Source: Vicinamibacteria bacterium (lineage in GTDB: Bacteria; Acidobacteriota; Vicinamibacteria; Vicinamibacterales; JAENWD01). Taken from it: a stretch of 64,000 nucleotides of DNA. Under the pieces are notes generated by a model. The model made no database searches. It was not told the origin of the DNA and saw only the letters and a program-made list of their open reading frames with translations. The first letter of the stretch is position 1. Each line of letters begins with the position of its first letter. The position numbers and the translations under genes were made by a program. Shown in pieces: positions 17,688 through 63,749 of the stretch. The DNA lies in NCBI GenBank assembly GCA_963796915.1, contig CAWCNI010000004.1, forward strand, positions 2,693,419-2,757,418, given 5' to 3'.

Positions 17688-18596
17688 ATGCGATGGCTGA
17701 AGCAGGGCCTGATCGTCTCGCCGAATGCTCAGGCTCCCTGGGTCGGCTCGCACGCGGCGTTGCCCATCGTGTCGACGGTGAACGAGCGCCAGCGCATCTA
17801 CTTCAGCTCGCGTGACGCCGGGAACCGCGCGCACATCGGCCACGTCACGCTGTCGCTGATCGACAGCGGCGAGCCCCAGGAGTTCAGCCGGTCGGCGGTG
17901 CTCTCGCCAGGAGCGATCGGCACATTCGACGATGCCGGCGTGACGAGCTCGTGCCTGGTGGAGCACGGCGATCGCCTTTACCTCTTCTACACAGGATGGG
18001 CGCTCGGCGTCAGCGTTCCCTTCTACCTCCATGCTGGCCTGGCGGTCAGCGACGACGGCGGCGAGAGCTTCCGGCGCCTGTCGGACGCGCCGCTGCTGGA
18101 ACGCACCGCTGTCGACGCGTACCTGACGGCGTCGCCGTGGGTGCTCATCGAAGACGGGCTGTGGCGGATGTGGTACGTCTCGGGCACCGAGTGGCAGGTG
18201 ACGCCCGCCGGCCCGCGACATCGCTATCACATCAAGTACGCCGAGTCTCGAGACGGCGTGCGCTGGGACCGGCGCGGCATCGTGTGCATCGACTACCAGT
18301 CGCCGGAGGAGTACGCGTTTGGCCGGCCCTGTGTGATCAAGGACGCGGATCGGTATCGCATGTGGTACTCGCACCGCGGCGAGAGTTACCGGATGGGCTA
18401 CGCCGAGTCACGCGACGGCATCGTCTGGTCGCGCCACGATGACCGATGCGTGCTGGACGTGTCGTCGGACCAGGGCTGGGATGCCGAGATGGTGACGTAT
18501 CCCGTTGTGGCCGACGTGGCCGGCGACAGGTTCATGCTCTACAACGGCAACGGATACGGCCGCACGGGCATCGGCCTCGCGCGACAGGCTGTCTGA
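17688..18596 (+). CDS. hypothetical protein, beta-propeller-like (GH32/43/62/68-superfamily-like repeats)
   Basis: Repeated ...YFSSRD..., LYLFYTGW, WRMWYVSG, YAESRDGVRW, YRMWYSHR and YAESRDGIVW blade-like motifs. ATG at 17688. Function not assignable by eye. Confidence 0.55.
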   Translation: MRWLKQGLIVSPNAQAPWVGSHAALPIVSTVNERQRIYFSSRDAGNRAHIGHVTLSLIDSGEPQEFSRSAVLSPGAIGTFDDAGVTSSCLVEHGDRLYLFYTGWALGVSVPFYLHAGLAVSDDGGESFRRLSDAPLLERTAVDAYLTASPWVLIEDGLWRMWYVSGTEWQVTPAGPRHRYHIKYAESRDGVRWDRRGIVCIDYQSPEEYAFGRPCVIKDADRYRMWYSHRGESYRMGYAESRDGIVWSRHDDRCVLDVSSDQGWDAEMVTYPVVADVAGDRFMLYNGNGYGRTGIGLARQAV

Positions 18597-49739: not shown

Positions 49740-50636
49740 TCATACCGGCTGCAACAGCGCGGCGACTTGTTCTCGGATCGTTGCCGCTGCCGCTGGCGCC
49801 ACCGGGCGGAGTGGCGGACGCGGCGGGCCGCCGGCGAGTCCCGCGGCGTCGACCGCTACCTTCAGCCCGGGGATGCTGTGAATCGGGCCCACCGCTTTCG
49901 CGATCGGCATCAGCCGCCGCTGAAGCGCCTGCGCCTCGTCGTACCTTCCGGCCATCACGCACTCGAACAGCGACGTGCACGCGTCGGGCGCGACGTCGGC
50001 GGGGCCGATCGTCGCCCCGGTGGCGCCGACCATCAGCGAGCCCAGGAGCGCGCTCGTCGATCCCGCGAGCACGCCAAATCCTGGCCGGCAGCCGGCGGCG
50101 AGGTCGGCGATCACAGTCACGTCACCGCCCGAGTCCTTGATGCCGATGATGTTCGGATGCGCCGAGAGCGTGGCTGCCGCGTCGGGCGCCATGTTGATGC
50201 CGGTGAAGATCGTCACGTTGTACAGGATGACCGGCACCGGCGCCGCGTCGGCGACGCGCGTGTAGAACTCGACCAGCGCCTCGCTGTTCATCCGGCCCTT
50301 GAAAAACGACGGCGTGCGCACCATCACGGCGTCCGCGCCGCGCTCCGCCGCCCGCGCGCCGGCCGCGATCGCCGCGGCCGTGGACTCGCGCCCGGTGCCG
50401 GCGATCAGCCACTTCTCCGTCGGCCACACCGATCGCGCGCGCTCGATCAGCCGATCGGACTCCTCATCGTCCAGCAGCGGCGCCTCGCCGTTGCTGCCGA
50501 GCACCACGACCCCGGCCAGTGCCGTCTTCGCGTAGTGGCGGAGGTTCGACCCGAACGCATCGAGATCCACAGCGTCGCCGCGGAAGGGGGTCGTGACAGG
50601 CGCAAAGATGCCGCGGAGTGACCGGCCAGAAGACAT
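49740..50636 (-). CDS. dihydrodipicolinate synthase (DapA/NAL) family lyase
   Basis: GIFAPVTTPF...GVVVLGSNGEAPLL (GxxGE), ...YNV..., IIGIKDSGGD (Schiff-base Lys context). Confidence 0.8.
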   Translation of the reverse strand: MSSGRSLRGIFAPVTTPFRGDAVDLDAFGSNLRHYAKTALAGVVVLGSNGEAPLLDDEESDRLIERARSVWPTEKWLIAGTGRESTAAAIAAGARAAERGADAVMVRTPSFFKGRMNSEALVEFYTRVADAAPVPVILYNVTIFTGINMAPDAAATLSAHPNIIGIKDSGGDVTVIADLAAGCRPGFGVLAGSTSALLGSLMVGATGATIGPADVAPDACTSLFECVMAGRYDEAQALQRRLMPIAKAVGPIHSIPGLKVAVDAAGLAGGPPRPPLRPVAPAAAATIREQVAALLQPV

Positions 50637-50739
50637 CCCCCGACTCTACGGGGGCAGGCGAGAACGGTCAAGCGATGCGCGCCGGCCCTCACGCGCAAGG
50701 CGCCGGGGCGAAAAGGCGCACAGTACAGTCAGGCCAGCA

Positions 50740-50765
50740 CTGTAGGGCCAATCTTCAGATTGGCC
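50740..50765. repeat. palindromic unit CTGTAGGGCCAATCTTCAGATTGGCC
   Basis: Same family. Arms GGCCAATCT / AGATTGGCC. Confidence 0.85.
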
Positions 50766-50793
50766 ACGACACCGACGCCCTGTATAGAAGTTC

Positions 50794-50850
50794 GCGTAGC
50801 CCCGGAGCCCGGAGCCCGGAGCCCGTAGCCCGTAGCCCGTAGCCCGTGAG
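50794..50850. repeat. CCGGAGC / CCGTAGC heptamer microsatellite (about 8 units)
   Basis: GCGTAGC-C-(CCGGAGC)x3-(CCGTAGC)x3-CCGTGAGC. Ends 1 nt before the stop (50851) of the ABC permease gene. Confidence 0.9.
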
Positions 50851-51807
50851 CTACTGTCCTCCCTCCGCGACGATGTTCGTGAGCAGCGTGACGACGAAGA
50901 TCGCCACCGCCGGCGCAAGCAGCCACGGAAACGCGGCGAGCGCAGGGCCGGTGGCTTCCTGCAGCGCCGTCCCCCAGCTGGGCACGCGGTCGGGCAGGCC
51001 CAGGCCGATGAACGACAGCGTCGCCTCGGCGAGCACGAACGCGGGAACGAGCAGCGCCGCCTGGCGCGCCACGAAGCCGAAGGACGCCGGCAGCAGGTGC
51101 AGGCGCAGCACGCGCCACGGCGACGCGCCGAGCGCGCGCGCGGCTTCGGCGTGCGCCATCGCGTTCTCCGCCGCGACGATCGGCCGCACGCCGCGCGCGA
51201 TCCACGGCGCGCCGGCGACGGCGAGCAGCGCGATCAGCGCCGCGACGACGGCCGGCGTCGGCAGCACGATCGGCAGCGCCGCACGGAGCGTGACGACCAG
51301 GTAGATCGCCGGCAGCACGGCGATGACATCGGCGACGCGCATCAGGAGCGCAGCCAGCCAGCCGCCGCGGGCACCGGCGATGCCGCCAATCGCAAGCCCG
51401 ATCAGCACCGCGCCGGCGACGGCGCCGAGCGCGATCCCCAGCGATGCGCGCGCGCCGTAGACGAGACGCGCGAAGACGTCGCGGCCCGACCTGTCGGCGC
51501 CGAGCAGCAGGAGCGGCGCGTCGGGATCGCCAGCGTCGCTGACGAGGCGTCCGCTGGCGAAGAATGTCACCGGCACGTCCACGCCGGCGTCTTCGCGGTA
51601 TTGCTGGCTGAGACGATCGACCAGGCGCTGCGGATGAAAGTACGGCGCGCGCCAGTGGCCCGCGGCGTCGCGGAGCCGCACGACGGTGGGCGGCGCGTAC
51701 GGCGCGTCGGCGAACGGCGTATCGGGCGCGTGCGGCGCCACGACCGGCGCGGCAATCGACGCGATCACAATCGCACCGAGCAGCGCCGCACCGAGCGCGC
51801 GCGTCAT
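50851..51807 (-). CDS. ABC transporter permease (DppC/OppC-like)
   Basis: Start MTRALGAALLGAIVIASIAAPVVAP (ATG 51807-51805, ATGA overlap with the upstream stop). ...GADRSGRDVFARLVYGARASL... and the EAA-loop-like AHAEAARALGASPWRVLRLHLLP. Confidence 0.85.
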   Translation of the reverse strand: MTRALGAALLGAIVIASIAAPVVAPHAPDTPFADAPYAPPTVVRLRDAAGHWRAPYFHPQRLVDRLSQQYREDAGVDVPVTFFASGRLVSDAGDPDAPLLLLGADRSGRDVFARLVYGARASLGIALGAVAGAVLIGLAIGGIAGARGGWLAALLMRVADVIAVLPAIYLVVTLRAALPIVLPTPAVVAALIALLAVAGAPWIARGVRPIVAAENAMAHAEAARALGASPWRVLRLHLLPASFGFVARQAALLVPAFVLAEATLSFIGLGLPDRVPSWGTALQEATGPALAAFPWLLAPAVAIFVVTLLTNIVAEGGQ

Positions 51808-52787
51808 GCGGCCCTGCCTTCGGCGGAGGCGCCGGGCGACGTGATGCGCGGGTCGGCCCACGCGATCACCAGGTCTGCCGCGAGCAGCCCCAGTCCGAGC
51901 AGCAGCGTGCCGGCGGCCGCGCACCCGGCGACCAGGTTCAGATCGCGATGCAGGAGCGCGTCGAACGTCAGGCGGCCCAGCCCGGGCCACGCCGTGACGA
52001 TCTCGACCACGAACGACCCGCTGAGCAGCGCGCCGAACGCCAGCCCCGCCACCGCCGCGACGGGCTTCACGGAGAGCCGCCAGGCGTGGTGGACCATCAC
52101 GCGCGCCGGCGGGATGCCACGCGCCCGCGCCGCCTGCACGGCGGGATGCCGGAGCGCTTCGCCCAGCGCCTGCGCCTGCAGCCGCTCGAACGTCGCCGCC
52201 AGCGGTAATGCGAGCGCCAGGACCGGCAGCGGCAGGTGCCAGACGACATCGCGCACGTACGCGAGTCCGGACAGGCCAGCCGCCGACGTCATCCCGCTGG
52301 CGGGAAACCACCCGGTGCGCAGCGCGAGCAGCACCAGCGCCAGCGACCCCACGAACGGCGGAATCGAGAGCAGCACCAGCGAGACGATGCGGATCGCGTG
52401 CGCCAGCAGCGACCGCGGCCGTGTCGCGGAGAGAAACGCCGGAGGGATGCCGAGGATCAGCGCGACGAGCAGTGCCGTCACTGCCAGGATCGCCGTGTGC
52501 CCCGCGCGCGACGCGACCAGCGGGCCAGCCGGCTGCTGGTAGAGCGTGGAGTCGCCGAGATCGAGCCGGGCGACGCCGCCGATCCACGACGCCCACTGCG
52601 CGACGAGCGGGCGATCGAGGCCGGCCTGCGATCGCGCGCGCGCGATCCGCTCCCGCGACGCGCCGAAGCCGCCCGCGATCTCCGCCGCGTCGCCGGGCGC
52701 CAGCCGCGTCAGGACGAAGGCGCCGGACGACACCAGCAGCACGAGGAGGAGCGTCGAGCCGAGGCGCCGCAGCAGGTGGCCGATCAT
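51804..52787 (-). CDS. ABC transporter permease (DppB/OppB-like)
   Basis: MIGHLLRRLGSTLLLVLLVSSGAFVLTRLAPGD... and AARARGIPPARVMVHHAWRLS (EAA loop). Confidence 0.85.
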   Translation of the reverse strand: MIGHLLRRLGSTLLLVLLVSSGAFVLTRLAPGDAAEIAGGFGASRERIARARSQAGLDRPLVAQWASWIGGVARLDLGDSTLYQQPAGPLVASRAGHTAILAVTALLVALILGIPPAFLSATRPRSLLAHAIRIVSLVLLSIPPFVGSLALVLLALRTGWFPASGMTSAAGLSGLAYVRDVVWHLPLPVLALALPLAATFERLQAQALGEALRHPAVQAARARGIPPARVMVHHAWRLSVKPVAAVAGLAFGALLSGSFVVEIVTAWPGLGRLTFDALLHRDLNLVAGCAAAGTLLLGLGLLAADLVIAWADPRITSPGASAEGRAA

Positions 52788-52839
52788 CAGGATGGCATCC
52801 GGTCGGGGCCGATGATACCGGGTGCGCGGCCGGCGCGCG

Positions 52840-54584
52840 CTATGGCGCCGCCGGCGTCACGTACAGCTCGTCTGCCGCCCACAGCACCGGCGGCGTCGTC
52901 GGCGTGGGCTTCGCGCCGCCGACGCGGCGGCCGGTGGCGACGAACACGCGCGGCGCGGCGAAGTAGAGCGCCGGGTTGTGCGTCAGGAACAGCCGCTGGA
53001 CGTCGGTGAAGAGCGCCACGCGCTCCGTGCGGCTGGCGCTGGCCGCCTGCTGCGCCATCAGCGTGTCGATCTGCGCCTCCCACGGCGTGGCCGGCGTCTT
53101 CTGCGATGGATGCCACAGGTGCATGCCGCCGGAGCTGAGCCACCAGTCCAGGTTCGTCGCCGGATCGGTGTCGCTCGGCGTGGCGTGGTGGTAGATCGCG
53201 TCGAAGTCGCCCTCGCCCCATCGCTTCATGACGCCGCCGAGGTCCATGGCGACCACGTCCACCGCGACGCCGACCGGCGCGAGCTGGTCGCGGATGAACT
53301 GCGCGCCCTTCTCCCCCGCCGTCACGCCGGCCTGCACGAGGATCGTGATGCGCGCCGGGTGCCCCGCAGCGTCCTCGCGCACGCCGTCCTCGTTGCGATC
53401 GACCAGGCCCATCGCGTCGAGCAGCGCCGAGGCCTGCTTCGGGTCGAAGGGCGGAGGCTGGAGCCCGGTGGGCAGCCACTCGTGATTGGCCGCCGGCACC
53501 GCGAACGGCGACGCCTCCGCGGCGCCGAGATAGACGGAGTCCACGAAGCCCTGCCGGCTCACCGCCAGCGACACCGCCTGGCGGAACCTGTCGTCGAGGA
53601 GGAACGCGTGCGGACTGTCCTTGGCCGCCGCCAGGTTGAACCACAGTAGATAGCGGTCGAAGCCCCCTCCGAGATCGACCAGGTGCACCTTGCCGGCGTC
53701 TGCCGCGGCCTTCATCTCGCGATAGTCGTCGGGCCGCAGTTGCGTCTGCGTCAGATCGACCTGGCCGCCGGCCAGGCGCAGGAGCTCGGTGTTCTGGTCC
53801 GGCGCGATCTCCAATGTCAGCGTGTCCAGGTACGGGAGCGCGCGGCCCTCGCCGTCCTTCCGCCAGTAGTGCGGGTTGCGCACGAGCACGACGCGCTCGG
53901 CCGGCGTGTAGGACTGCGACCAGGAACGGGCCGAGCCCCGGCATCTCCGCCGGCGGCGTCTGCGGGCCCCAGGCGCTGCCGAACGTGCCGGCGGCCAAAG
54001 CGGCGCTGAGCGCGTGCTTGGGATAGATCGGCAGCGCGTCCAGCAGGCGGACGCCCGGCGCGTACGGCTTGTCGAAGTTGAGGACGACGCGGAGCGGCGA
54101 TTCGGCGTGGACGGCAATCGGCGCGTTGCCGACGCGGACCACGTCGGTCATCACGTTGTCGAAGTGCGCGTCCAGCGCCGCCGCAAACGAGAACGTCACA
54201 TCGTCTGCCGTGAACGGGCGTGCCGTCGGACCAGACAACGCCAGGGCGCAGATCGAGCGTGATGGTGCGGGTGTCCGGCGACACCGTCCACGCGGCAGCG
54301 AGCCATGGCTCCGGCGTGTCGGTGACGCGGTTCACGCGGACCAGGCGTCCGGCGGTGAGCAGCGCGATCAGATCGGTGGGGAAGGCGTTGCTCGCGTAGC
54401 GGTTGAAAGTCTTCGGCTCGCCGCGCATCGTGGCAACAAGCGCACCGCCTTTTGCCGGCTGGTCCTGTGTAGCCGAACGCGACGGTGATGAAGGGGGTCC
54501 CCCCGGTCGAACGTAATAAACGCCAACACCAAGAGCGACCAACAGCAGGGCCAGTGGAGCCCAGCGGCGCGAATTCCCGGTCAC
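52840..54584 (-). pseudogene. ABC transporter substrate-binding protein, family 5 (peptide/nickel), interrupted by two 1-nt frameshifts near 54215 and 53917
   Basis: Three consecutive frames carry one protein: ORF 53817..54584 (signal plus ...VVWSDGTP), ORF 52787..54238 (FTADDVTFSFAAAL...GLGPFLV) and ORF 52840..54117 (QSYTPAERVVLVRNPHYWRKDGEG...). The joins read SDGTP|g|FTADDV and PFLV|g|QSYTP. Confidence 0.8.
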
Positions 54585-54814: not shown

Positions 54815-54829
54815 TGGTACCCACCCTGC
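54815..54829 (+). promoter_or_regulatory. candidate sigma-54 (-24/-12) promoter upstream of the HTH-S8 operon
   Basis: TGGTAC-CCACC-CTGC matches TGGCAC-N5-TTGC, with the invariant GG and GC at the correct 10-nt spacing. It lies 32 nt upstream of the ATG at 54861 and just before a GGAGG-rich RBS. A sigma-54 activator is encoded 4.6 kb downstream. Confidence 0.3.
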
Positions 54830-54860: not shown

Positions 54861-55100
54861 ATGTCACAGGCCGCTCAGCCATCACCTGCCGCAGACCCAC
54901 GGGTCGGGCGCAGCGTGTCCATCGATCAGGCTGCTGAACTTCTCGGCGTCTCTCGTCGGACGGTTTACAACCGCATTCGCGACGGGCGCCTGGCCACCAT
55001 CCGGACATTGGGCGGTTCGCAACGCGTGTTGCTCGAGTCACTCGCGCGTTCGGCCGCATGGATTCGCCCGCTCGTGTCGGAATTCGGAGGCAGACAATGA
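54861..55100 (+). CDS. excisionase-family/MerR-type helix-turn-helix DNA-binding protein
   Basis: SIDQAAELLGVSRRTVYNRIRDGRLATIRTLGGSQRVL (HTH_17-like). The stop TGA (55098-55100) overlaps the ATG (55097-55099) of the S8 peptidase gene. Confidence 0.75.
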   Translation: MSQAAQPSPAADPRVGRSVSIDQAAELLGVSRRTVYNRIRDGRLATIRTLGGSQRVLLESLARSAAWIRPLVSEFGGRQ

Positions 55101-56881
55101 CGACGCTTAAGGGACGGCACCAGGTGGCGGCAGCCTTGGTAGGAGCTGTCGTGGCGTTTGGCGTGACCGTGACGGCAGAGGGGGGCCCGCGTGCGCGGCT
55201 GTCCCGCGACCTCTCCGACGCGCTCACACGTGGAGGCGCGGCGACGCGCGATGTCATTCTGCAGGCCGACGCGACGACCGTGGCGGCGGTGGCCGCGCGG
55301 CACGGCGCGCAGGTGAAGAAGTGGCTGACGACCGGCGCTGTCCTCTCGGTGAGCGACGCCAACCTGGGCGGCCTGACGGCTGACGCCGCCGTCGACCACC
55401 TGTCCGGCGACACCTTCGTGCACTCGATGATGGCGGTGACCGACCAGGCGATTGGCGAGGACCAGGTGCTGGCCGGGCTCAAGGGCATCGGGCCGGTGAG
55501 CGGCCGCGGCATCGGCATCGCGCTGATCGATTCCGGCGTCTCGAACCACGTGGCGCTGAAGGGCCACATCGCGGCGGCGCTGGACTTCACGGAGGCGGGC
55601 GGCAAGGGCGTGGACGAACTGGGCCACGGCACGCACGTGGCGGGGATTATCGGCGGCGAGGACGCGGACTTCCGCGGCGTGGCGCCGGGCGCGTGGATCG
55701 TGAGCCTGAAGGTGCTGAGCGCTGACGGCTCGGGCCGGACCAGCGACGTGATCAACGCGATCGACTGGGCGGTCTCGCACAGCCGGCAGTACGGCATCCG
55801 GGTGATCAACCTGTCGCTGGGGCGGCCGGTGTTCGAGTCGTACCTGGACGACCCGCTGTGCCAGGCGGTGGAGCGCGCGTATCGCGCCGGGCTGCTGGTG
55901 GTGACCTCGGCGGGCAACTACGGGATGACGCAGGACGGGCAGAAGGTGCTGGGCGCGATCACCGCGCCGGGCAACTCGCCGTACGCCTTCACGGTGGGCT
56001 CGCTCGACAGCCAGAACACCGTCACGCGCTCCGACGACGTGGTGTCCGACTACAGCTCGCGCGGGCCGACGCTCTACGACCGGCTGGTGAAGCCGGACAT
56101 CGCGGCGCCGGGGCGGAAGATCGTCTCGCTCTACAACGAGGGCTCGACGCTGGCGGTGCGGTATCCCGACCACCTGGTGAGCGGCAGCGGGAAGACGGGG
56201 CTGTTCTACCTGAGTGGCACGAGCATGGCGACCGGCGTGGTCAGCGGCGCGGCGGCGCTGGTGCTGGAGACCAACCCGAAGCTGACGCCGCTCCAGGTGC
56301 GGGTGGCGCTGCAGATGTCGGCGTCGTTCATGCCGGACGCCGGCCTCATCGGCGCGGGCGCGGGCGAGCTGAACGTGGCGGCGGCGGTGAAGCTGGCGAA
56401 GACGGGGCCGTCGGTGCAGCGGGTGTCGACGGTGATTGCCGGCGAGCCGGTCCAGTCGAGCGGTGTCGTAACAGGCGACTCGACGGTGTGGGGAAGCGGA
56501 CGTTCAATCGTCCGCGGCGCCAACACGATCGTGTGGGGAAACTCCAACACCATCGTCTGGGGTAATAGCGCGAACACTATTGTCTGGGGCAACACCATTG
56601 TCTGGGGCAACACGATCGTGTGGGGAAACTCGAACACCATCGTTTGGGGGAACTCCAACACCATTGTCTGGGGCAACACCATTGTCTGGGGCAACACCAT
56701 CGTTTGGGGGAACTCCGCCGACACGATCGTTTGGGGAAACGCACTCATGAATACGATCGTCTGGGGGAACAGCCTGGACACCATCGTCTGGGGCAATACG
56801 ATCGTCTGGGGCAACACCATCGTTTGGGGCAATTCAGCGGACACCATCGTCTGGGGTAACACGATCGTCTGGGGCAACTAG
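55097..56881 (+). CDS. secreted S8 (subtilisin-family) serine peptidase with 16 C-terminal TIVWGN repeats
   Basis: Signal peptide and I9-like propeptide. Catalytic triad contexts IALIDSGV, HGTHVAGII and GTSMATGVVSGAAAL. The C-terminal 119 aa consists of TIVWGN units. Confidence 0.9.
   Translation: MTTLKGRHQVAAALVGAVVAFGVTVTAEGGPRARLSRDLSDALTRGGAATRDVILQADATTVAAVAARHGAQVKKWLTTGAVLSVSDANLGGLTADAAVDHLSGDTFVHSMMAVTDQAIGEDQVLAGLKGIGPVSGRGIGIALIDSGVSNHVALKGHIAAALDFTEAGGKGVDELGHGTHVAGIIGGEDADFRGVAPGAWIVSLKVLSADGSGRTSDVINAIDWAVSHSRQYGIRVINLSLGRPVFESYLDDPLCQAVERAYRAGLLVVTSAGNYGMTQDGQKVLGAITAPGNSPYAFTVGSLDSQNTVTRSDDVVSDYSSRGPTLYDRLVKPDIAAPGRKIVSLYNEGSTLAVRYPDHLVSGSGKTGLFYLSGTSMATGVVSGAAALVLETNPKLTPLQVRVALQMSASFMPDAGLIGAGAGELNVAAAVKLAKTGPSVQRVSTVIAGEPVQSSGVVTGDSTVWGSGRSIVRGANTIVWGNSNTIVWGNSANTIVWGNTIVWGNTIVWGNSNTIVWGNSNTIVWGNTIVWGNTIVWGNSADTIVWGNALMNTIVWGNSLDTIVWGNTIVWGNTIVWGNSADTIVWGNTIVWGN
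56522..56878 (+). repeat. coding tandem repeat: 16 x TIVWGN with 0-4-aa linkers
   Basis: NTIVWGN SNTIVWGN SANTIVWGN TIVWGN TIVWGN SNTIVWGN SNTIVWGN TIVWGN TIVWGN SADTIVWGN ALMNTIVWGN SLDTIVWGN TIVWGN TIVWGN SADTIVWGN TIVWGN, then stop. The core hexapeptide is invariant while third codon positions vary (ATC/ATT, GTC/GTG/GTT, GGC/GGA/GGG/GGT). Confidence 0.95.
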
Positions 56882-56924
56882 GCGAACGCAGGGCGTGCGC
56901 CATAGCACCTTTCGCCTTTTTTTT
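56881..56924 (+). terminator. rho-independent terminator after the S8 gene
   Basis: GGCGAA...TTCGCC stem enclosing a GC-rich internal hairpin, followed by T8 (56917-56924). Confidence 0.6.
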
Positions 56925-57023
56925 GCGGATCAAACATGCAGCCTATAATCGTCTGGTCCTGACAAGCCGATAAACGTCGGTATGGGGTAACCCCGCCTTA
57001 GCGGGGACCGACCCTCTTGACCA

Positions 57024-59434: not shown

Positions 59435-62227
59435 ATGGCAGGCGTTCCGATGCTGCGATCGTTGGAGCAGAGCCTTCAGCTCGGGCGATTTGTCGACGTT
59501 CTCACTTCCTTAAAGACCAACCTTCAGGCCGGTGGCCTCGAGCGCGACGCGATCGCTGCTGAGGTATGCGCGCTGGCCGGACGATCCGCGGAAGCAAAGA
59601 TTGCGGCTGAGAGGCTCGTGTCCGATGCCAGGACGTCAGTCGACCTGGCACTCCGGGCTCGTCTGGTCTTGGCACAGTTGCAGATCGACGCCGGGCAGGC
59701 TCGGGCGGCTCACTCACTATTGCAGGCGATCGCGTCGGAGGCCACCTCGGCTCGAGCCTGGAAACTTCGGTGCTGGGCTGAGCTATGGCAATTGACGGCT
59801 CTCGGCGAGTTTGCCGGCCCAGCTGAAATCCGCGCCCTGTTGAAACAAGTCAGGCACCACGTGAATCAGCTCGGCGATCCGATGACGACCGTCGCTCTTC
59901 ACTTGTTTGTTGCCGAAGCCGAGAGCAGACGGGGTGTTATTGACTCGTCGGTCGAGCATGTTCGGATAGCGAGGTCGCTGCTTGAAGGTTCTCCGAATTA
60001 TTGGCTTGAGGGCCTCGCGGCCATCGATTCGCTATGTCTCGCGTACATGCGGTCAGATCCGGATCTCGCGAAGCAAGAGAGCGAACGAGCCGTTCGCGCC
60101 GCCTACGAAGCCGGGGCGGAAAAGACAAAGCTCGCTGCGGTAGCGAATTCGGCGACGCTCGCGCTGACTGCCGGCGACCTCGATATCGCTGAGCGAGACT
60201 TCACCGCTGCTCTTCGTCTCGCAAGTGTGGCGCCTCGGTGGAGGTCGTCGATCGTTGATGGGCTCTGCCAAGTTCACCTTGCTCGTGGCACTCCTCGTTT
60301 GGCGATCGAACGGTTCGAGGATTCTTCCGACGGTCAGGCCGACTCTCTATCGTACCAGGCGCTTTGGCCGAGACTCACCCAGGCTAGGGCACGACTCGCC
60401 GCGGGTGACATGGCGCGTGTCCGTTCGGACATCAAGGTGGTCCTTTCGGATGCTCGTCGGGTCGGCGACCGCGAGTTGTCGATGCGGCTCTTGCTTCTCG
60501 ACGCCGAGGCAGCCTCGAGGGAACGCGAGCCGGCGATTGCTAGTCTCAGCCTTCAGGCCGCCGACTTCGAGCATCCTGATCCCTCACTGGAATTGGTTGC
60601 TGAGTACAGCCGAGTGTGCGGACTGCTGATGGCGGTCAGCCATCCGTTCATCGCGGCGACTTCCGCCAGGAGAAGCCGGCGGATTTTTACGGCGATTGGT
60701 CACACGCGGGCGGCCAACGAGGTCAACATTCCCTCAACGCCAGGCAAGGTGGCTCCCCTGAATCTAATCGCTGACCTTGCCGGAGTCGTGACAAGTAACG
60801 TCGCTGCTGCGTTTCAACAGGCCTCACGTCCAGATCTATTTGGCGCAGAACTCTCCGATCTCCTGATCGACGTGGGCGCCGCGCGTTCGGTTGCGATCCT
60901 GACGCGAGACGCTCGAGACGTCGTCCGCGTCGTCACAACGCGCGGCTGGTCAGAGTCGGCCGCGCTCGCGGCGGCGCGCGCGGTGCCGGCGCTTCCCACT
61001 CTTCCCCTGGGCGAATGGCGCAACCAGCACTGGAGCCTCCTCGTCGACGTCCTGCCAACACCCGCCGCGAGCTCGGCGTTCGTCGCAGTGCGCACGCTCG
61101 CCGCTTGCAGCCTGACGGTCAACGCCGCGAGGCGCGACGAACGGGAACGGGCGGCGCTCTGGCCCGTCGATCCCGTTGAAGACTCGACGCACGGCGTCTT
61201 TGTGGCCTCGTCGATGATTGAACTGATCAAGACGATCCGCCAGGTCGCCGACACGCCAGTCACAGTGCTGCTCACCGGCGAAACCGGCACCGGCAAGGAC
61301 ATCCTCGCCCGGCTGGTCCACGAGTATTCGCGCCGCGCCACCAAGACGTTCACGCCCTTCTGCTGCACGGCGGTGCCGCGCGAGATGCTCGACAGCCAGC
61401 TGTTCGGACATCGGCGTGGGGCCTTTACTGGCGCTCAGGAGCAGGCGCCTGGCGTCATCAGAGGCGCACAGGGCGGCACGTTGTTCCTCGATGAAATCGG
61501 CGAGCTCGCGCCCGAAGCGCAGGTGAAGCTGCTCCGCTTCCTCGAGTCCCATGAGGTGCACCCGATCGGGGAATCACACCCGGTGCAGGTCGACGTCCGG
61601 GTCGTGGCGGCGACGAATCGCGATCTGCCGACGCTGATCAAACAGGGCGCGTTCCGGGAAGACCTCTACTACCGACTCAACGTCGTCCCACTACGGGTCC
61701 CGCCATTGCGAGAGCGGCGCGAGGAGATTCCGCGGCTTGTCGACTTCTACCTGTCGAAGTTCGGACCGCAGTTTCACAAGGGCCAGCTCACTGTCTCGCC
61801 GGAGGCATTGGAATATCTGCTGCTCTATTCGTGGCCTGGCAACGTGCGCCAGCTCGCCAACGAGCTGCGGCGCGTTGCGGTCCTCGCGGAAGTGGACGCC
61901 GTCATCTCACCAGCGCACCTGACGCCCGACTTGCTCGCCTCGCGGACGACGGCGCCCGCCGCGGATGACGAGATGCTGCCCACCGAGATGAAGATCCGGA
62001 CGAATCAAACCTTGTCGGCGGCAACCGACGAGCTCGAGCGTCAAATGATCCGTCGCGCCCTCACGCTGTGCGATGGCCACGTCGATCAGGCCGCGCAGCT
62101 GCTGGGGCTGTCACGTAAGGGTCTCTATCTCAAACGCCAGCGCCTCGGGATCGACCCGGTACCGGACAGTGATGGCCCCGCACAGCCGCCGCCTTCCGGC
62201 GGCTCGGACGAAGGTCTGCCCGACTGA
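59435..62227 (+). CDS. sigma-54-dependent transcriptional activator (bEBP) with a ~560-aa helical/TPR-like N-terminal domain
   Basis: AAA+ core VLLTGETGTGKDILA (Walker A), GAFTGA loop (HRRGAFTGA), GGTLFLDEIGEL (Walker B), RVVAATNRDL, EDLYYRLNVV, WPGNVRQL. C-terminal Fis-type HTH DQAAQLLGLSRKGLYLKRQRLGI. No receiver, PAS or GAF domain recognised in the N-terminus. Confidence 0.9.
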   Translation: MAGVPMLRSLEQSLQLGRFVDVLTSLKTNLQAGGLERDAIAAEVCALAGRSAEAKIAAERLVSDARTSVDLALRARLVLAQLQIDAGQARAAHSLLQAIASEATSARAWKLRCWAELWQLTALGEFAGPAEIRALLKQVRHHVNQLGDPMTTVALHLFVAEAESRRGVIDSSVEHVRIARSLLEGSPNYWLEGLAAIDSLCLAYMRSDPDLAKQESERAVRAAYEAGAEKTKLAAVANSATLALTAGDLDIAERDFTAALRLASVAPRWRSSIVDGLCQVHLARGTPRLAIERFEDSSDGQADSLSYQALWPRLTQARARLAAGDMARVRSDIKVVLSDARRVGDRELSMRLLLLDAEAASREREPAIASLSLQAADFEHPDPSLELVAEYSRVCGLLMAVSHPFIAATSARRSRRIFTAIGHTRAANEVNIPSTPGKVAPLNLIADLAGVVTSNVAAAFQQASRPDLFGAELSDLLIDVGAARSVAILTRDARDVVRVVTTRGWSESAALAAARAVPALPTLPLGEWRNQHWSLLVDVLPTPAASSAFVAVRTLAACSLTVNAARRDERERAALWPVDPVEDSTHGVFVASSMIELIKTIRQVADTPVTVLLTGETGTGKDILARLVHEYSRRATKTFTPFCCTAVPREMLDSQLFGHRRGAFTGAQEQAPGVIRGAQGGTLFLDEIGELAPEAQVKLLRFLESHEVHPIGESHPVQVDVRVVAATNRDLPTLIKQGAFREDLYYRLNVVPLRVPPLRERREEIPRLVDFYLSKFGPQFHKGQLTVSPEALEYLLLYSWPGNVRQLANELRRVAVLAEVDAVISPAHLTPDLLASRTTAPAADDEMLPTEMKIRTNQTLSAATDELERQMIRRALTLCDGHVDQAAQLLGLSRKGLYLKRQRLGIDPVPDSDGPAQPPPSGGSDEGLPD

Positions 62228-62307: not shown

Positions 62308-62418
62308 GGCCGATCTAAAGATCGGCCCTACCGATGCGGGTGGGCGGCGGATCTGCAGATGGGCCTTCTAGCGGCCTCGCTCTGTATCGTTCCGGTAGGG
62401 CGCATCTTCAGATGCGCC
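62308..62418. repeat. three palindromic units of the GGCCGATCT-NN-AGATCGGCC family
   Basis: GGCCGATCTAAAGATCGGCCCTAC (62308-62331), the degenerate GGCGGATCTGCAGATGGGCC (62346-62365) and GTAGGGCGCATCTTCAGATGCGCC (62395-62418). Confidence 0.85.
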
Positions 62419-62423
62419 GGAGT

Positions 62424-62497
62424 GGCCGATCTAACCGCCTCCGCCAAGGCTACGGCGAGTCCGCCGAAGCGCTCCGCGCAAAGGCGGAAGATCGGCC
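62424..62497. repeat. palindromic unit split by the 53-nt structured insert (inverted copy of 44113-44191)
   Basis: GGCCGATCTAA[CCGCCTCCGCCAAGGCTACGGCGAGTCCGCCGAAGCGCTCCGCGCAAAGGCGG]AAGATCGGCC. Ends 13 nt before the HlyD gene stop. Confidence 0.85.
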
Positions 62498-62510
62498 CGA
62501 CAACCTCGTG

Positions 62511-63749
62511 CTACTTCGTGAAGACAATGGCTTCGACAGACATCCCCGGACGCAGCAGGTGGCTCGGATCCTGGTCGCGATTGATGGAGATCTTCACCGG
62601 GACACGCTGGACGACTTTGACGAAGTTGCCGCTGGCATTCTCCGGCGGCAGCACGCTGAAGCGCGCGCCGGTCGCCGCCGCGATGCTGTTCACGGTGCCT
62701 TCGAACTTCCGGCCGTAGGCGTCCACCTTGATCTCGGCGCGCTGGCCCGGGACGATGCCGGACAGCTGCGTCTCCTTGAAGTTCGCCGTCACCCACACCT
62801 GCTCGAGCGGGACGATCGCCATCAGCGGCTGACCCGGCTGCACGATCTGCCCGACTTCGACGTTCTTGCGGCTGACGAGCCCGGCGGCCGGCGCCCTCAG
62901 CGTCGCGTATTCCAGGTTCAGCGTCGCCTGCGCGACCATCGCCTCCTGCTGCGCGACCCGCGCGTCGGCAGAACTGGCGCGCGCCTCGAGCGCGTTGACC
63001 TGCTGCGGCACCGTGGACGCCGCCGTGACGCCAGAGGTCGCCTGCGTGACCCGCCCGTGCGCCTGCGCCAGCCGCGCCGTCGCGACGTCGATCGCCCGCT
63101 GCTGCTCGACCACCGCGGCCTGCGCCGAGTCCAGAGCCGCGCGCGCCGAGGCCTCTGTCGCCACCACCAGGTCGAACTGCTGCTTGGACACTTCGTCCTT
63201 GGCCACCAGCGGCTCGAGCCGCGCCTTGTCCTTGGACGCCTTGGTCAGGTTGGCCTCCGCCTCGCGCTGCCGGGCCTCCGCCGACGAGAGCTTCGCCTTG
63301 GCCGCGTCGATGTCGCCAGTGGCGAGCGCGATGCCGGCCTCGGCGTTCTGCTGCTCGGCACGGGCATCGGTCAGCTGGCTGTGCGCCGTCGTGCTGTTCA
63401 CCGAGACGCCGGACCGCGCCGCCTGGGCCGCCGCCTTCGCTTCCTCGAGATCCGCCTGCGCGCGCGCCAGCGCCACGTGCAGATCGCGCGGGTCGATCTC
63501 GACGAGCACGTCGCCCGCCTTCACCTGCTGGTTGTCCTCGACGAGCACCTTGCCGACGATGCCGCCGACTTTGGCGGCGATCGGCGAGATGTGTCCGTCG
63601 ATCTGCGCGTCGTCAGTCGACTGGCGGCCGGAGAAGTGAATCCAGATGCCCGCGACGACGGCAATGACGATGAGGGCGCCGGCCGCAATCCAGCGGACGC
63701 GTCCGCTCTTCTGCGGCGCGGGCGCGTCGGTTAGTGACTGGTCGGCCAT
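62511..63749 (-). CDS. HlyD/EmrA-family efflux pump membrane-fusion (periplasmic adaptor) protein
   Basis: N-terminal TM (WIAAGALIVIAVVAGIWI), ...TDDAQIDGHISPIAAKVGGIVGKVLVEDNQQVKAGDVLVEIDPRD..., a long coiled-coil, ...ATLNLEYATLRAPAAGLVS...VVQRVPVKI. Confidence 0.88.
   Translation of the reverse strand: MADQSLTDAPAPQKSGRVRWIAAGALIVIAVVAGIWIHFSGRQSTDDAQIDGHISPIAAKVGGIVGKVLVEDNQQVKAGDVLVEIDPRDLHVALARAQADLEEAKAAAQAARSGVSVNSTTAHSQLTDARAEQQNAEAGIALATGDIDAAKAKLSSAEARQREAEANLTKASKDKARLEPLVAKDEVSKQQFDLVVATEASARAALDSAQAAVVEQQRAIDVATARLAQAHGRVTQATSGVTAASTVPQQVNALEARASSADARVAQQEAMVAQATLNLEYATLRAPAAGLVSRKNVEVGQIVQPGQPLMAIVPLEQVWVTANFKETQLSGIVPGQRAEIKVDAYGRKFEGTVNSIAAATGARFSVLPPENASGNFVKVVQRVPVKISINRDQDPSHLLRPGMSVEAIVFTK

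Follow-up and report, generated by a model that had tools for sequence, protein, structure and literature searches.

A C-terminal TIVWGN repeat tail on a predicted exported subtilase of Acidobacteriota

A protease gene of a Vicinamibacteria bacterium, located in a 64,000-nt stretch of DNA (hereafter, the window), ends in an array of tandem TIVWGN hexapeptides and overlaps a small upstream gene for an HTH protein. This arrangement raises the questions of what the repeat tail is, what it may contribute to the protease, and whether the upstream gene belongs with the protease or is a remnant of a mobile element.

Architecture of the protease

The protease ORF (55097-56881, + strand) encodes 594 aa followed by a TAG stop codon. 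Its ATG start codon overlaps the stop codon of the upstream 79-aa ORF as ATGA (55097-55100). The following features were assigned within the protease gene.

55097-55177 (+): Sec-type signal peptide, residues 1-27, MTTLKGRHQVAAALVGAVVAFGVTVTA with EG after the cleavage site, read from the sequence
55193-55426 (+): subtilisin-type N-terminal propeptide, residues ~33-110, from AF2 and Foldseek
55502-56323 (+): Peptidase_S8 catalytic domain, residues 136-409, from Pfam PF00082, alignment and AF2 (pLDDT >90)
56486-56521 (+): degenerate lead-in units STVWGS and SIVRGA, joining the catalytic domain to the array, from the translation
56522-56878 (+): repeat array, 16 x [N/D]-TIVWG with linkers of 0-4 residues, up to the stop codon, from the translation and TRF

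The S8 peptidase identity given in the initial annotation was confirmed by a strong Pfam match (1.7e-51, 175.7 bits against a cutoff of 21.8). The catalytic triad (D145, H177 and S376) and the oxyanion-hole residue N274 were invariant in an alignment of 106 homologous sequences. Inspected by eye, the signal peptide shows a basic n-region followed by a hydrophobic core of 16 residues and a cleavage motif of the small-x-small type, and its residues 8-22 form a helix in the AF2 model. The propeptide was modeled at pLDDT >90 with its secondary structure in the order β-α-β-β-α-β. Foldseek aligned 406-452 columns with unprocessed pro-subtilisins and ProN-Tk-SP (3AFG), as opposed to ~300 columns with mature subtilisins; the E values for ProN-Tk-SP and pro-subtilisin E ranged from 1e-27 to 1e-30. 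Judged from its sequence, the protein is a pre-pro-subtilase with an intact active site and predicted Sec export.

The best solved match to the propeptide and catalytic part was Tk-SP of Thermococcus kodakarensis (PDB 3AFG and 9UES; phmmer E ~1e-45; Foldseek 3AFG E 2.7e-30 over 421 columns at 31% identity). Both proteins have a signal peptide, a propeptide, an S8 domain and an extra non-catalytic C-terminal domain; however, no part of 3AFG aligned with residues 465-594 of the window protease. In Tk-SP, the C-terminal domain is a globular β-jelly roll instead of an array of short tandem repeats. In our AF2 model, the confidence fell from ~90 to <50 over residues 461-480, that is, on entering the repeat tail.

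The repeat array and its relatives

When the translation was re-read, exactly 16 TIVWGN units were found within the last 119 residues, either directly adjoining or separated by SN, SAN, SAD, SLD or ALMN. The last unit closes at position 56878 and is followed immediately by the stop codon. All of this agrees with the initial annotation; its array start of 56522, however, counts the preceding Asn codon, and the first TIVWGN itself begins at 56525. The successive unit-to-unit intervals are 8, 9, 6, 6, 8, 8, 6, 6, 9, 10, 9, 6, 6, 9 and 6 residues. A search of the 64-kb window in all six frames gave 16 matches to the pattern [ILVMF][ILVMF]WG, every one of them inside the array, which is far above chance expectation.

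At the DNA level, the 16 identical hexapeptides exist in 11 versions, which differ at third codon positions only (ACC/ACG/ACT, ATC/ATT, GTC/GTT/GTG, TGG, all four GGN codons and AAC/AAT). Among the units, the mean pS was 0.64 and pN was 0 (Nei-Gojobori); for comparison, the protease domain of the window and that of a 93% orthologue differ with a pS of 0.20. In line with the earlier view, these values indicate strong purifying selection on the peptide sequence rather than fresh slippage. Since the 16 peptides are identical while their silent sites are saturated, the constraint appears to be sequence-specific and stronger than for a disposable spacer.

The loose higher-order pattern that had been noticed in the array is real as a DNA block duplication: TRF detected an 87-nt period with 86% matches, units 1-4 are similar to units 5-8, and exact repeats reach up to 35 nt in length. 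A regular structural super-period, however, found no statistical support. When the variance of the sums of two to five consecutive periods was compared with that of shuffles in 27 arrays, no signal was detected for a super-period of 2, 3, 4 or 5 units.

An exhaustive phmmer search with the tail as the query yielded 422 clusters at 50% identity, and further tail loci were collected by scanning GTDB with a hand-written DNA pattern. The taxa bearing the tail are almost all Acidobacteriota metagenome-assembled genomes (MAGs). A C-terminal run of 3-21 units (median 11) was present in 109 of the 120 best homologues, and the protein ended 0-1 residue after the last WG in 37 of these 109. The partner domain is nearly always this S8 clade, and was S8 wherever the partner was checked; an S8 homologue was encoded in 94 of the 126 loci examined, 119 of which came from the GTDB pattern scan. 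Hits with other partners (an ion channel, a thaumatin and a 7TM protein) were rejected as unrelated low-complexity repeats. A whole-protein scan of GTDB species representatives found no close relative of the window protease. The tail is thus a family-wide feature, C-terminal on this S8 clade.

Across the family, the unit can be written as [DN]-[TS]-Φ-Φ-W-G plus a linker of 0-6 residues. Intervals of 8 (n=387), 9 (n=238) and 10 (n=159) are the commonest and intervals of 6 (n=100) are a minority; two positions before ΦΦWG, 56% of the units have Asp and 15% have Asn. The codon-scrambled pattern was seen in five of seven related arrays, and those of two related loci, L002 and L003, are recent DNA expansions. 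Unit number shows high turnover, and the flavour of the unit differs from protein to protein. Relatives with a regular period include P0115 (15 x GDTVVWGE), P0061 (17 x ADNILWGN) and P0120 (period 7).

Identity to the 93% orthologue falls sharply at the start of the tail (~56,450) and does not recover over the following gene, suggesting either that recombination occurred at this point or that the right-hand segment is not orthologous. A parallel in-place change between TIVWGN in the window and SLVWGN in the orthologue was considered and rejected, because nucleotide identity collapses at this point.

This identity drop, the high turnover (3-21 units, protein-specific flavours and the two recent expansions) and the very low AF2 confidence on the tail would suit a tail that forms no stable binding domain, acting instead as a cleaved C-terminal pro-sequence or export helper, or as a β-aggregating, amyloid-like self-association tail. 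Aqualysin-type subtilases carry a C-terminal pro-sequence that is cleaved after the envelope has been crossed, and T-I-V-W strings would be strongly prone to β-aggregation. The identity of the 16 peptides despite their saturated silent sites argues the other way, as does a composition that is not disorder-like, and we regard this explanation as distinctly unlikely.

Two elements were noted downstream of the stop codon.

56881-56924 (+): weak terminator-like element, a GGCGAA...TTCGCC stem followed by T8, read from the sequence
56948-56956 (+): ATCGTCTGG 9-mer, in frame with the protease gene, where the reading is IIVWS and then a stop; a possible unit relic

The terminator-like element folds at -16.6 kcal/mol, which is not significant (z -1.2), and a consensus terminator scan made no call. 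Eight copies of ATCGTCTGG occur in the window, of which six lie in the array, one is at 56948 and one, unrelated, is at 18420. The relic of the repeat that had been reported past the stop codon is therefore present and in frame, but as a single 9-mer it is indistinguishable from chance.

Candidate folds of the tail

No Pfam, NCBIfam or PDB match to the tail exceeded threshold, in keeping with the initial annotation, which could place the repeat in no named family; Pfam PF27509 is listed as a precomputed label on two homologues. Searches of Pfam, NCBIfam and PDB sequences revealed no similarity to known carbohydrate-, cell-wall- or membrane-binding modules. The PDB sequence search with the tail gave low-complexity echoes only (Spt5 CTR, E 0.09; the Lolium perenne ice-binding protein LpIBP, 3ULT, E 1.1), and a full-text literature search for the repeat motif strings found nothing relevant. 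AF2 produced no confident fold either with the 106-sequence alignment (tail pLDDT ~35) or with the tail alone as a single sequence (pLDDT ~48). The low-confidence single-sequence model has one short strand per unit, and a Foldseek search of the tail model against the PDB returned noise (best E 0.3, TM <0.3). The composition, with T/I/V/W strands and G-N turns, is hydrophobic and β-prone.

The initial annotation had proposed a left-handed β-helix following the hexapeptide rule; in its canonical form, this fold has three hexapeptide units per 18-residue coil. As in the hexapeptide family (PF00132), the unit is six residues long and keeps Gly and aliphatic residues in fixed places: read from the Trp, as WGNTIV, it recalls the hexad [LIV]-G-x-x-[STAV]-x. 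Linker-free hexamers in series are found in this array and in relatives, and weak, non-significant Foldseek and Pfam echoes involved GlmU, LpxD and DCTN5 (E 0.18). However, the tail departs from the [LIV]-[GAED]-X2-[STAV]-X consensus and has linkers after most units, and neither the protein nor the tail matched Pfam Hexapep at E<=1. In the canonical fold, each coil would have to accommodate Trp at three small aliphatic core positions. In most family arrays, the period of 8-10 recurs at every unit and does not reflect occasional loops, and neither a contiguous six-residue period nor a three-unit super-period is present. AF2, which as a rule builds such domains easily, failed to do so here. The canonical left-handed β-helix was accordingly not borne out, and we consider it very improbable; a looser β-solenoid may be the fold of the tail.

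The family periods of mostly 8-10 and the frequent Asp (or Asn) two positions before ΦΦWG recall instead a Ca2+-dependent, RTX-like β-roll, which would remain unfolded until export and then serve as a folding switch or protease stabiliser. Such switches have parallels in the RTX block of serralysins and in the Ca-binding C-terminal domain of Tk-SP. RTX β-rolls (PF00353) are likewise C-terminal arrays of G/N/D turns and short hydrophobic strands on secreted proteases. One relative (P0163), with 9-mer units of the form WGSAADNVV, matches Pfam HemolysinCabind at 3.3e-13, and an RTX protein (P0272) was among the matches to the tail query. The window protein itself, however, had no HemolysinCabind match at E<=1. 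The tail has a variable period of 6-10 and lacks the GGxGxD turn: G2 and G4 are not conserved, and the Asp is one position early in the 9-mers. In the window array, 13 of the 16 units carry Asn in place of Asp, and linkers are missing from seven units. RTX proteins are exported by type I secretion, whereas this protein carries a Sec signal and has no type I secretion context. AF2 normally performs well on RTX rolls but fails on this tail. On balance, an RTX-like roll appears improbable.

The failure of AF2 on a monomer is what would be expected of an obligate trimer, such as an intertwined β-helix of the phage T4 gp5 or VgrG type, in which the protease would be a trimer and a single chain could not fold. 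The gp5 triple-stranded β-helix is built from the repeat VxGxxxxx, with N/D at the second position and an N/D ladder (PMC4576200). V-x-G is present in every unit of our array, an N/D ladder would be common to both, and 8 is the commonest family period. The array nevertheless does not follow a regular VxGxxxxx octapeptide: periods of 6-10 are mixed, and just 3 of its 15 intervals are of 8 residues. The second repeat position is Trp in the tail but N/D in gp5 (PMC4576200), the likeness amounts to a three-residue pattern, and phage or T6SS context is absent at the seven related loci. We therefore rate a gp5-like trimer as quite improbable.

The sole Pfam family near threshold was PF21300 (LbR_Ice_bind), which would make the tail an ice-binding β-roll akin to grass antifreeze protein. 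Both the tail and LpIBP consist of short N/T/V/G-rich tandem repeats, nine of 120 homologues carry a precomputed PF21300 label, and some relatives reached 30.9-34.6 bits, barely past the 30-bit cutoff. The window tail alone scored 22.9 bits and the whole protein 13.6, both below this gathering threshold, and the LpIBP structure was matched only at the E value given above. The LpIBP repeats are without Trp and differ in register and period (N-x-V-x-G with a period of 7+7, against N-T-I-V-W-G with 6-10). A Trp/Ile-rich surface is unlike known ice-binding faces, which also counts against this assignment. The PF21300 score is probably best explained by a shared N/T/V/G periodicity, and ice binding itself seems extremely improbable.

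The free spacing of 6-12 residues (linkers of 0-6), combined with the lack of a super-period of 2-5 units, is awkward for a regular solenoid. It is conceivable, although unlikely, that the tail represents a previously undescribed β-repeat architecture restricted to Acidobacteriota subtilases: a six-residue strand-turn rod, serving as a surface, polysaccharide or self-assembly module. Such a rod would tolerate the free insertion of 0-6 residues after any unit, would have one Trp per rung, and would be beyond current structure predictors.

Gene neighbourhood and proposed role

The genes and elements flanking the protease gene are as follows.

49740-54584 (-): SBP_bac_5 gene (split over frames in the window), two BPD_transp_1 permease genes and a DHDPS-family enzyme gene, from Pfam
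54815-54829 (+): σ54-type promoter candidate TGGTAC-N5-CTGC, TGGTACCCACCCTGC, 31 nt upstream of the HTH start codon
54861-55100 (+): gene for the small 79-aa HTH protein with an HTH_17/excisionase-type domain, from Pfam HTH_17 and NCBIfam TIGR01764
57024-59405 (+): downstream gene for a MASE9 - HD-GYP (HD_5) - GAF - GGDEF signalling protein, from Pfam
59435-62227 (+): gene for a σ54 enhancer-binding protein (Sigma54_activat, AAA_lid_14, HTH_8), from Pfam (1.8e-63)

The excisionase-type HTH gene and its ATGA overlap with the protease gene stood as first described (HTH_17, 2.9e-10; TIGR01764, 38.5 bits against a cutoff of 28.8). The HTH gene had been regarded as an unusual partner for a protease, a view that did not hold: it lies 5' of the protease gene in six of the seven related loci (L001-L006), and the pair is preceded by a candidate σ54-type promoter. 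Gene calling in the flanks of the seven loci revealed no integrase. Considering the conserved pair, the conserved σ54-type promoter candidate and the lack of an integrase nearby, the HTH gene looks like a co-transcribed regulator rather than a mobile-element relic.

The promoter candidate contains the GG-N10-GC element of σ54 promoters (consensus TGGCAC-N5-TTGCW), and a TGGYAY-N5-NTGC element precedes the HTH gene by 15-33 nt in the window as well as in L001-L006. Since the pattern does not exceed its chance frequency in the window (3 matches against an expectation of 1.67), the argument for this candidate comes from its conserved position. A gene for an HD_5/GAF protein is located 3' of the protease gene in all seven related loci, and a σ54 activator gene is located downstream in L001, L003, L004, L005 and L007. 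Rfam and tRNA scans of the window detected nothing.

The peptide-binding-protein/permease block is located divergently upstream of the HTH-protease pair, providing a nutritional context. The peptide-importer/DHDPS block is kept in L001 and L003-L006, and L002 has SBP_bac_5 only. The transporter block is divergent from the protease gene and is not co-transcribed with it; it is absent in the relative L007, which has the DHDPS gene only.

The reading that we tentatively prefer, at a little short of an even chance, is that the tail is a selected, non-catalytic β-repeat module for binding or retention, carried by a nutritional protease that is encoded in a σ54-dependent HTH-protease operon. The C-terminal 130 residues would constitute a lineage-specific, non-catalytic repeat domain in which each unit may consist of a single short β-strand, T-I-V-W, closed by a G-N/D turn. 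Stacked side by side, the units could build an elongated β-sheet or solenoid-like rod displaying a row of ~16 tryptophans and an Asn/Asp ladder. This rod may hold the mature protease on the cell envelope, on exopolysaccharide or on an insoluble substrate, and the peptide ABC importer encoded next to it could then capture the peptides that are released. Together, the HTH and protease genes would form a σ54-dependent operon controlled from within the locus. The analysis shows the protease identity, the export signal and propeptide, the family-wide tail, its selection at the peptide level and the conserved neighbourhood, whereas the stacking of β-strands, the exposure of a Trp row, the binding role and its ligand are our inference.

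The Acidobacteriota, most of which have not been cultured, rank among the most abundant bacteria of soils, and this is especially true of the Vicinamibacterales. The protease and its σ54, HD-GYP and peptide-importer neighbourhood look core to organic nitrogen acquisition in this phylum. Hundreds of homologues bear the tail, yet it has no model in the Pfam and NCBIfam copies searched and no solved relative. With the tail defined as a family, hundreds of MAG proteins now labelled only 'S8 peptidase / AprX' would be better annotated, and spurious 'antifreeze β-roll' labels would be removed. As a simple, codon-scrambled and length-variable repeat, the tail is also an attractive system for studies of repeat-protein evolution and design. 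If the binding rod that we propose is real, it would explain how the exoenzyme and its products are kept near the cell.

The protease and its tryptophan repeat array

The following features were mapped in the window.

Features of the protease locus
54815-54829: σ54-type promoter element TGGYAY-N5-NTGC (TGGCAC-N5-xTGC class)
54861-55100 (+): small upstream ORF, 79 aa; its TGA overlaps the protease ATG as ATGA
55097-56881 (+): protease ORF, coding for 594 residues
57024-59405: HD-GYP/GAF signalling gene, 3' of the protease
59435-62227: σ54 enhancer-binding protein gene, 3' of the protease

The ATGA overlap with the upstream gene, pointed out in the initial annotation, was borne out by both ORF boundaries. 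Residues 136-409 of the protease form a Peptidase_S8 domain (Pfam, 1.7e-51), and D145, H177, N274 and S376 were invariant in an alignment of 106 homologues. The N-terminus, MTTLKGRHQVAAALVGAVVAFGVTVTA|EG, reads as a Sec signal peptide. In the AlphaFold2 (AF2) model built with the same 106-sequence alignment, pLDDT was above 90 at residues about 30-460 and about 35 from residue 473 to the C-terminus. The best Foldseek partners of the modelled N-terminal and catalytic part were unprocessed pro-subtilases (ProN-Tk-SP from Thermococcus kodakarensis, 3AFG, E 2.7e-30; pro-subtilisin E was also among the best matches), which identifies residues about 33-110 as a subtilisin-type propeptide. Subtilases with additional C-terminal domains are common.

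The last 119 residues contain 16 exact copies of TIVWGN, joined directly or by SN, SAN, SAD, SLD or ALMN linkers, and the stop codon directly follows the final unit. The units, linkers and end had been described correctly; the earlier start at 56522 counts the preceding Asn codon, and the first unit begins at 56525. The motif [ILVMF][ILVMF]WG occurred 16 times in the six frames of the 64-kb window, each time inside the array, which is thus genuine and far exceeds chance expectation. Since 13 units follow an N and the other 3 a D, "[N/D]TIVWG + linker" describes the repeat better than "TIVWGN + linker". TRF detected a period of 87 nt (86% matches), units 1-4 are similar to units 5-8, and exact repeats reach at most 35 nt. 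The higher-order pattern noticed initially thus exists as a DNA block duplication, but not as a regular structural super-period.

The 16 units comprise 11 DNA versions that differ only at third codon positions (ACC/ACG/ACT, ATC/ATT, GTC/GTT/GTG, four GGN, AAC/AAT). A 223-aa antisense ORF (56206-56877, - strand) with repeats of the PQT[IM]V type mirrors the array; because the units vary only at third positions of the + frame, we regard it as a by-product of the repeat rather than a gene.

Spread and history of the repeat family

A whole-protein search returned thousands of S8 proteins, and our statistics were drawn from the best 120 (44-93% identity). At least three C-terminal ΦΦWG units (Φ, hydrophobic residue) were found in 109 of these; the repeat-bearing homologues are mostly named "serine protease AprX" or "S8 family peptidase" and come from Vicinamibacterales or Acidobacteriota MAGs.

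Repeat units among the 109 repeat-bearing homologues
Units per protein: 3-21, median 11
Proteins ending 0-1 residue from the last WG: 37/109
Unit intervals of length 6: 100
Unit intervals of length 8: 387
Unit intervals of length 9: 238
Unit intervals of length 10: 159
Unit intervals of length 11: 52
Unit intervals of length 12: 86

Position-wise counts gave the family core [D 56% / N 15% / E 9%]-[T 43% / S 29%]-Φ-Φ-W-G-[N 30% / S 25%]; in bare hexamers, one Asn serves as both the trailing residue of a unit and the leading residue of the next. The homology check proposed at the outset, run as an exhaustive phmmer search of 1.84 billion representatives with the tail as query, yielded 422 clusters at E<=1e-3, in which the partner domain was S8 wherever visible; a few non-S8 partners were rejected as unrelated low-complexity repeats. 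A DNA pattern matched at least 119 stretches in GTDB species genomes, and among the matches listed almost all were from Acidobacteriota MAGs (Vicinamibacterales, Bryobacterales/Solibacter and Terriglobia). Among 126 fetched loci, 94 encoded an S8 protein homologous to that of the window. In several Acidobacteriota genomes (loci L010, L032, L044, L060, L075 and L107), two or three S8-plus-repeat paralogues stand in tandem within 8 kb. In the 806-aa homologue P0260, Laminin_G_3 (LamG) is inserted in the S8 catalytic domain and the C-terminus is a pure hexamer array (DSLVWS/DSVVWG); the repeat is therefore not bound to one domain layout. Two other homologues, P0077 and P0146, bear the precomputed Pfam accession PF27509, which may be a new family spanning some portion of them, perhaps the repeat. 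We found no mention of a [D/N]-[T/S]-Φ-Φ-W-G repeat in the searchable literature.

Silent sites are saturated among the window units (mean pairwise pS 0.64) with zero replacement changes (pN 0), so the proposal of peptide-level purifying selection without recent slippage is largely right for the window. We compared eight arrays, those of the window and of seven loci with related proteases (L001-L007, L001 being the closest). In L002 and L003 the unit DNA is near-identical (0.08-0.10 differences per degenerate codon), indicating recent expansion there; the other six arrays (window, L001, L004-L007) are codon-scrambled, at 0.49-0.82 differences. The L002 gene (6001-7770) has 12 units in 3 DNA versions and the L003 gene (6001-7881) 9 units in 2 versions. 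These two regimes show that arrays grow by duplication at the DNA level and can then last long while selection strictly maintains the peptide.

The L001 protease is 93% identical to that of the window in amino acids, and their protease domains differ by only pS 0.20, dS 0.23 and dN 0.046, far less than the units at silent sites. The L001 tail, however, consists of about 22 SLVWGN units, not TIVWGN. At the nucleotide level the two loci are 86-98% identical as far as about 56,450; beyond it, identity drops sharply to 40-70% through the tail, the intergenic stretch and the HD-GYP gene. The segment to the right thus has a history separate from L001, with a likely recombination breakpoint at the tail start. 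Parallel in-place change from one hexamer to the other was rejected, since the fall in identity extends past the tail.

Gene context and regulation

The upstream 79-aa protein is of the HTH_17/excisionase type (Pfam, NCBIfam). It had been considered an unusual partner for a protease; however, an equivalent small HTH gene lies 5' of the protease in 6 of the 7 related loci (proteases 46-93% identical to that of the window), and no integrase was called near the pair. Its conservation and context make it a candidate co-transcribed regulator. In the window and L001-L006, all seven loci with the HTH gene, the σ54-type element lies 15-33 nt 5' of the HTH start codon. The HD-GYP/GAF gene follows the protease in 7/7 related loci and the σ54 enhancer-binding protein gene in 5/7. 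The promoter element and the nearby activator gene suggest that the HTH-protease operon is under σ54 control. Another conserved set of genes, divergent and upstream, encodes a family-5 peptide-binding protein, a pair of ABC permeases and an enzyme of the DHDPS family. The locus can be read as a regulated system that couples proteolysis outside the cell with uptake of peptides.

The SBP_bac_5 gene (52840-54584, - strand) does not run in one frame but is broken into at least two and probably three. In L001 it is split at another place, and a frameshift lies between protease and tail; such breaks resemble indel errors from long-read assembly more than pseudogenes. Directly after the protease stop, a GGCGAA...TTCGCC stem followed by T8 (56881-56924) could be a terminator parting the operon from the HD-GYP gene; its fold stability was not significant (z -1.2), and a consensus terminator scan made no call there. 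The 466-aa ORF 3' of the activator gene (62334-63734, +) had no Pfam match at E<=1e-5.

Fold and role of the tail

As first stated, the repeat fits no named family: the tail matched zero Pfam or NCBIfam families above threshold, and no related PDB sequence was found (best, Spt5 CTR, E 0.09; LpIBP, E 1.1). Its sole near match was PF21300, the grass antifreeze β-roll. A few relatives' tails just pass that cutoff (31-35 bits), and 9 of the best 120 homologues carry the precomputed label. The window tail scored 22.9 bits against a 30-bit cutoff, and we take the near match to be a common N/T/V/G periodicity; an ice-binding β-roll is thus extremely unlikely.

The AlphaFold prediction proposed for the repeat region gave low confidence in the full model and for the tail alone (pLDDT 48, pTM 0.41, one short strand in each unit), and Foldseek found nothing with the tail-only model (best E 0.3, TM below 0.3). 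The canonical left-handed β-helix originally proposed from the hexapeptide rule is very unlikely: the window protein had no Hexapep match at E<=1, and sums of 2-5 successive periods were no more uniform than shuffles and so give no evidence of a fixed unit number per coil. A Ca2+-dependent RTX-like β-roll is unlikely as well; one relative with 9-mer units matched the RTX model (3e-13), but the window protein had no HemolysinCabind match at E<=1. Possible folds include a less regular β-solenoid, triangular or two-sheeted and with corners of varying length, and a β-hairpin meander, for which W-G-N-T would make a good tight turn. An intertwined trimer like that of gp5, whose helix repeat is VxGxxxxx (PMC4576200), is possible as a fold but quite unlikely.

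We tentatively favor, at somewhat below an even chance, a selected non-catalytic β-repeat domain. Such a tail would present a row of tryptophans plus an Asn/Asp ladder and would serve a nutritional exoprotease as its binding or retention module. The data establish what the protease is, its export signals, the selection on the repeat, its family distribution and the operon; fold, exposed Trp row and binding role are inferred from them. That it is instead a cleaved pro-sequence or a self-aggregating tail seems rather unlikely. The repeat is widespread yet unnamed in the Pfam and NCBIfam releases searched; it is missing from the PDB, and AF2 fails to model it. It overturns nothing; it is useful for annotation and merits structural study.
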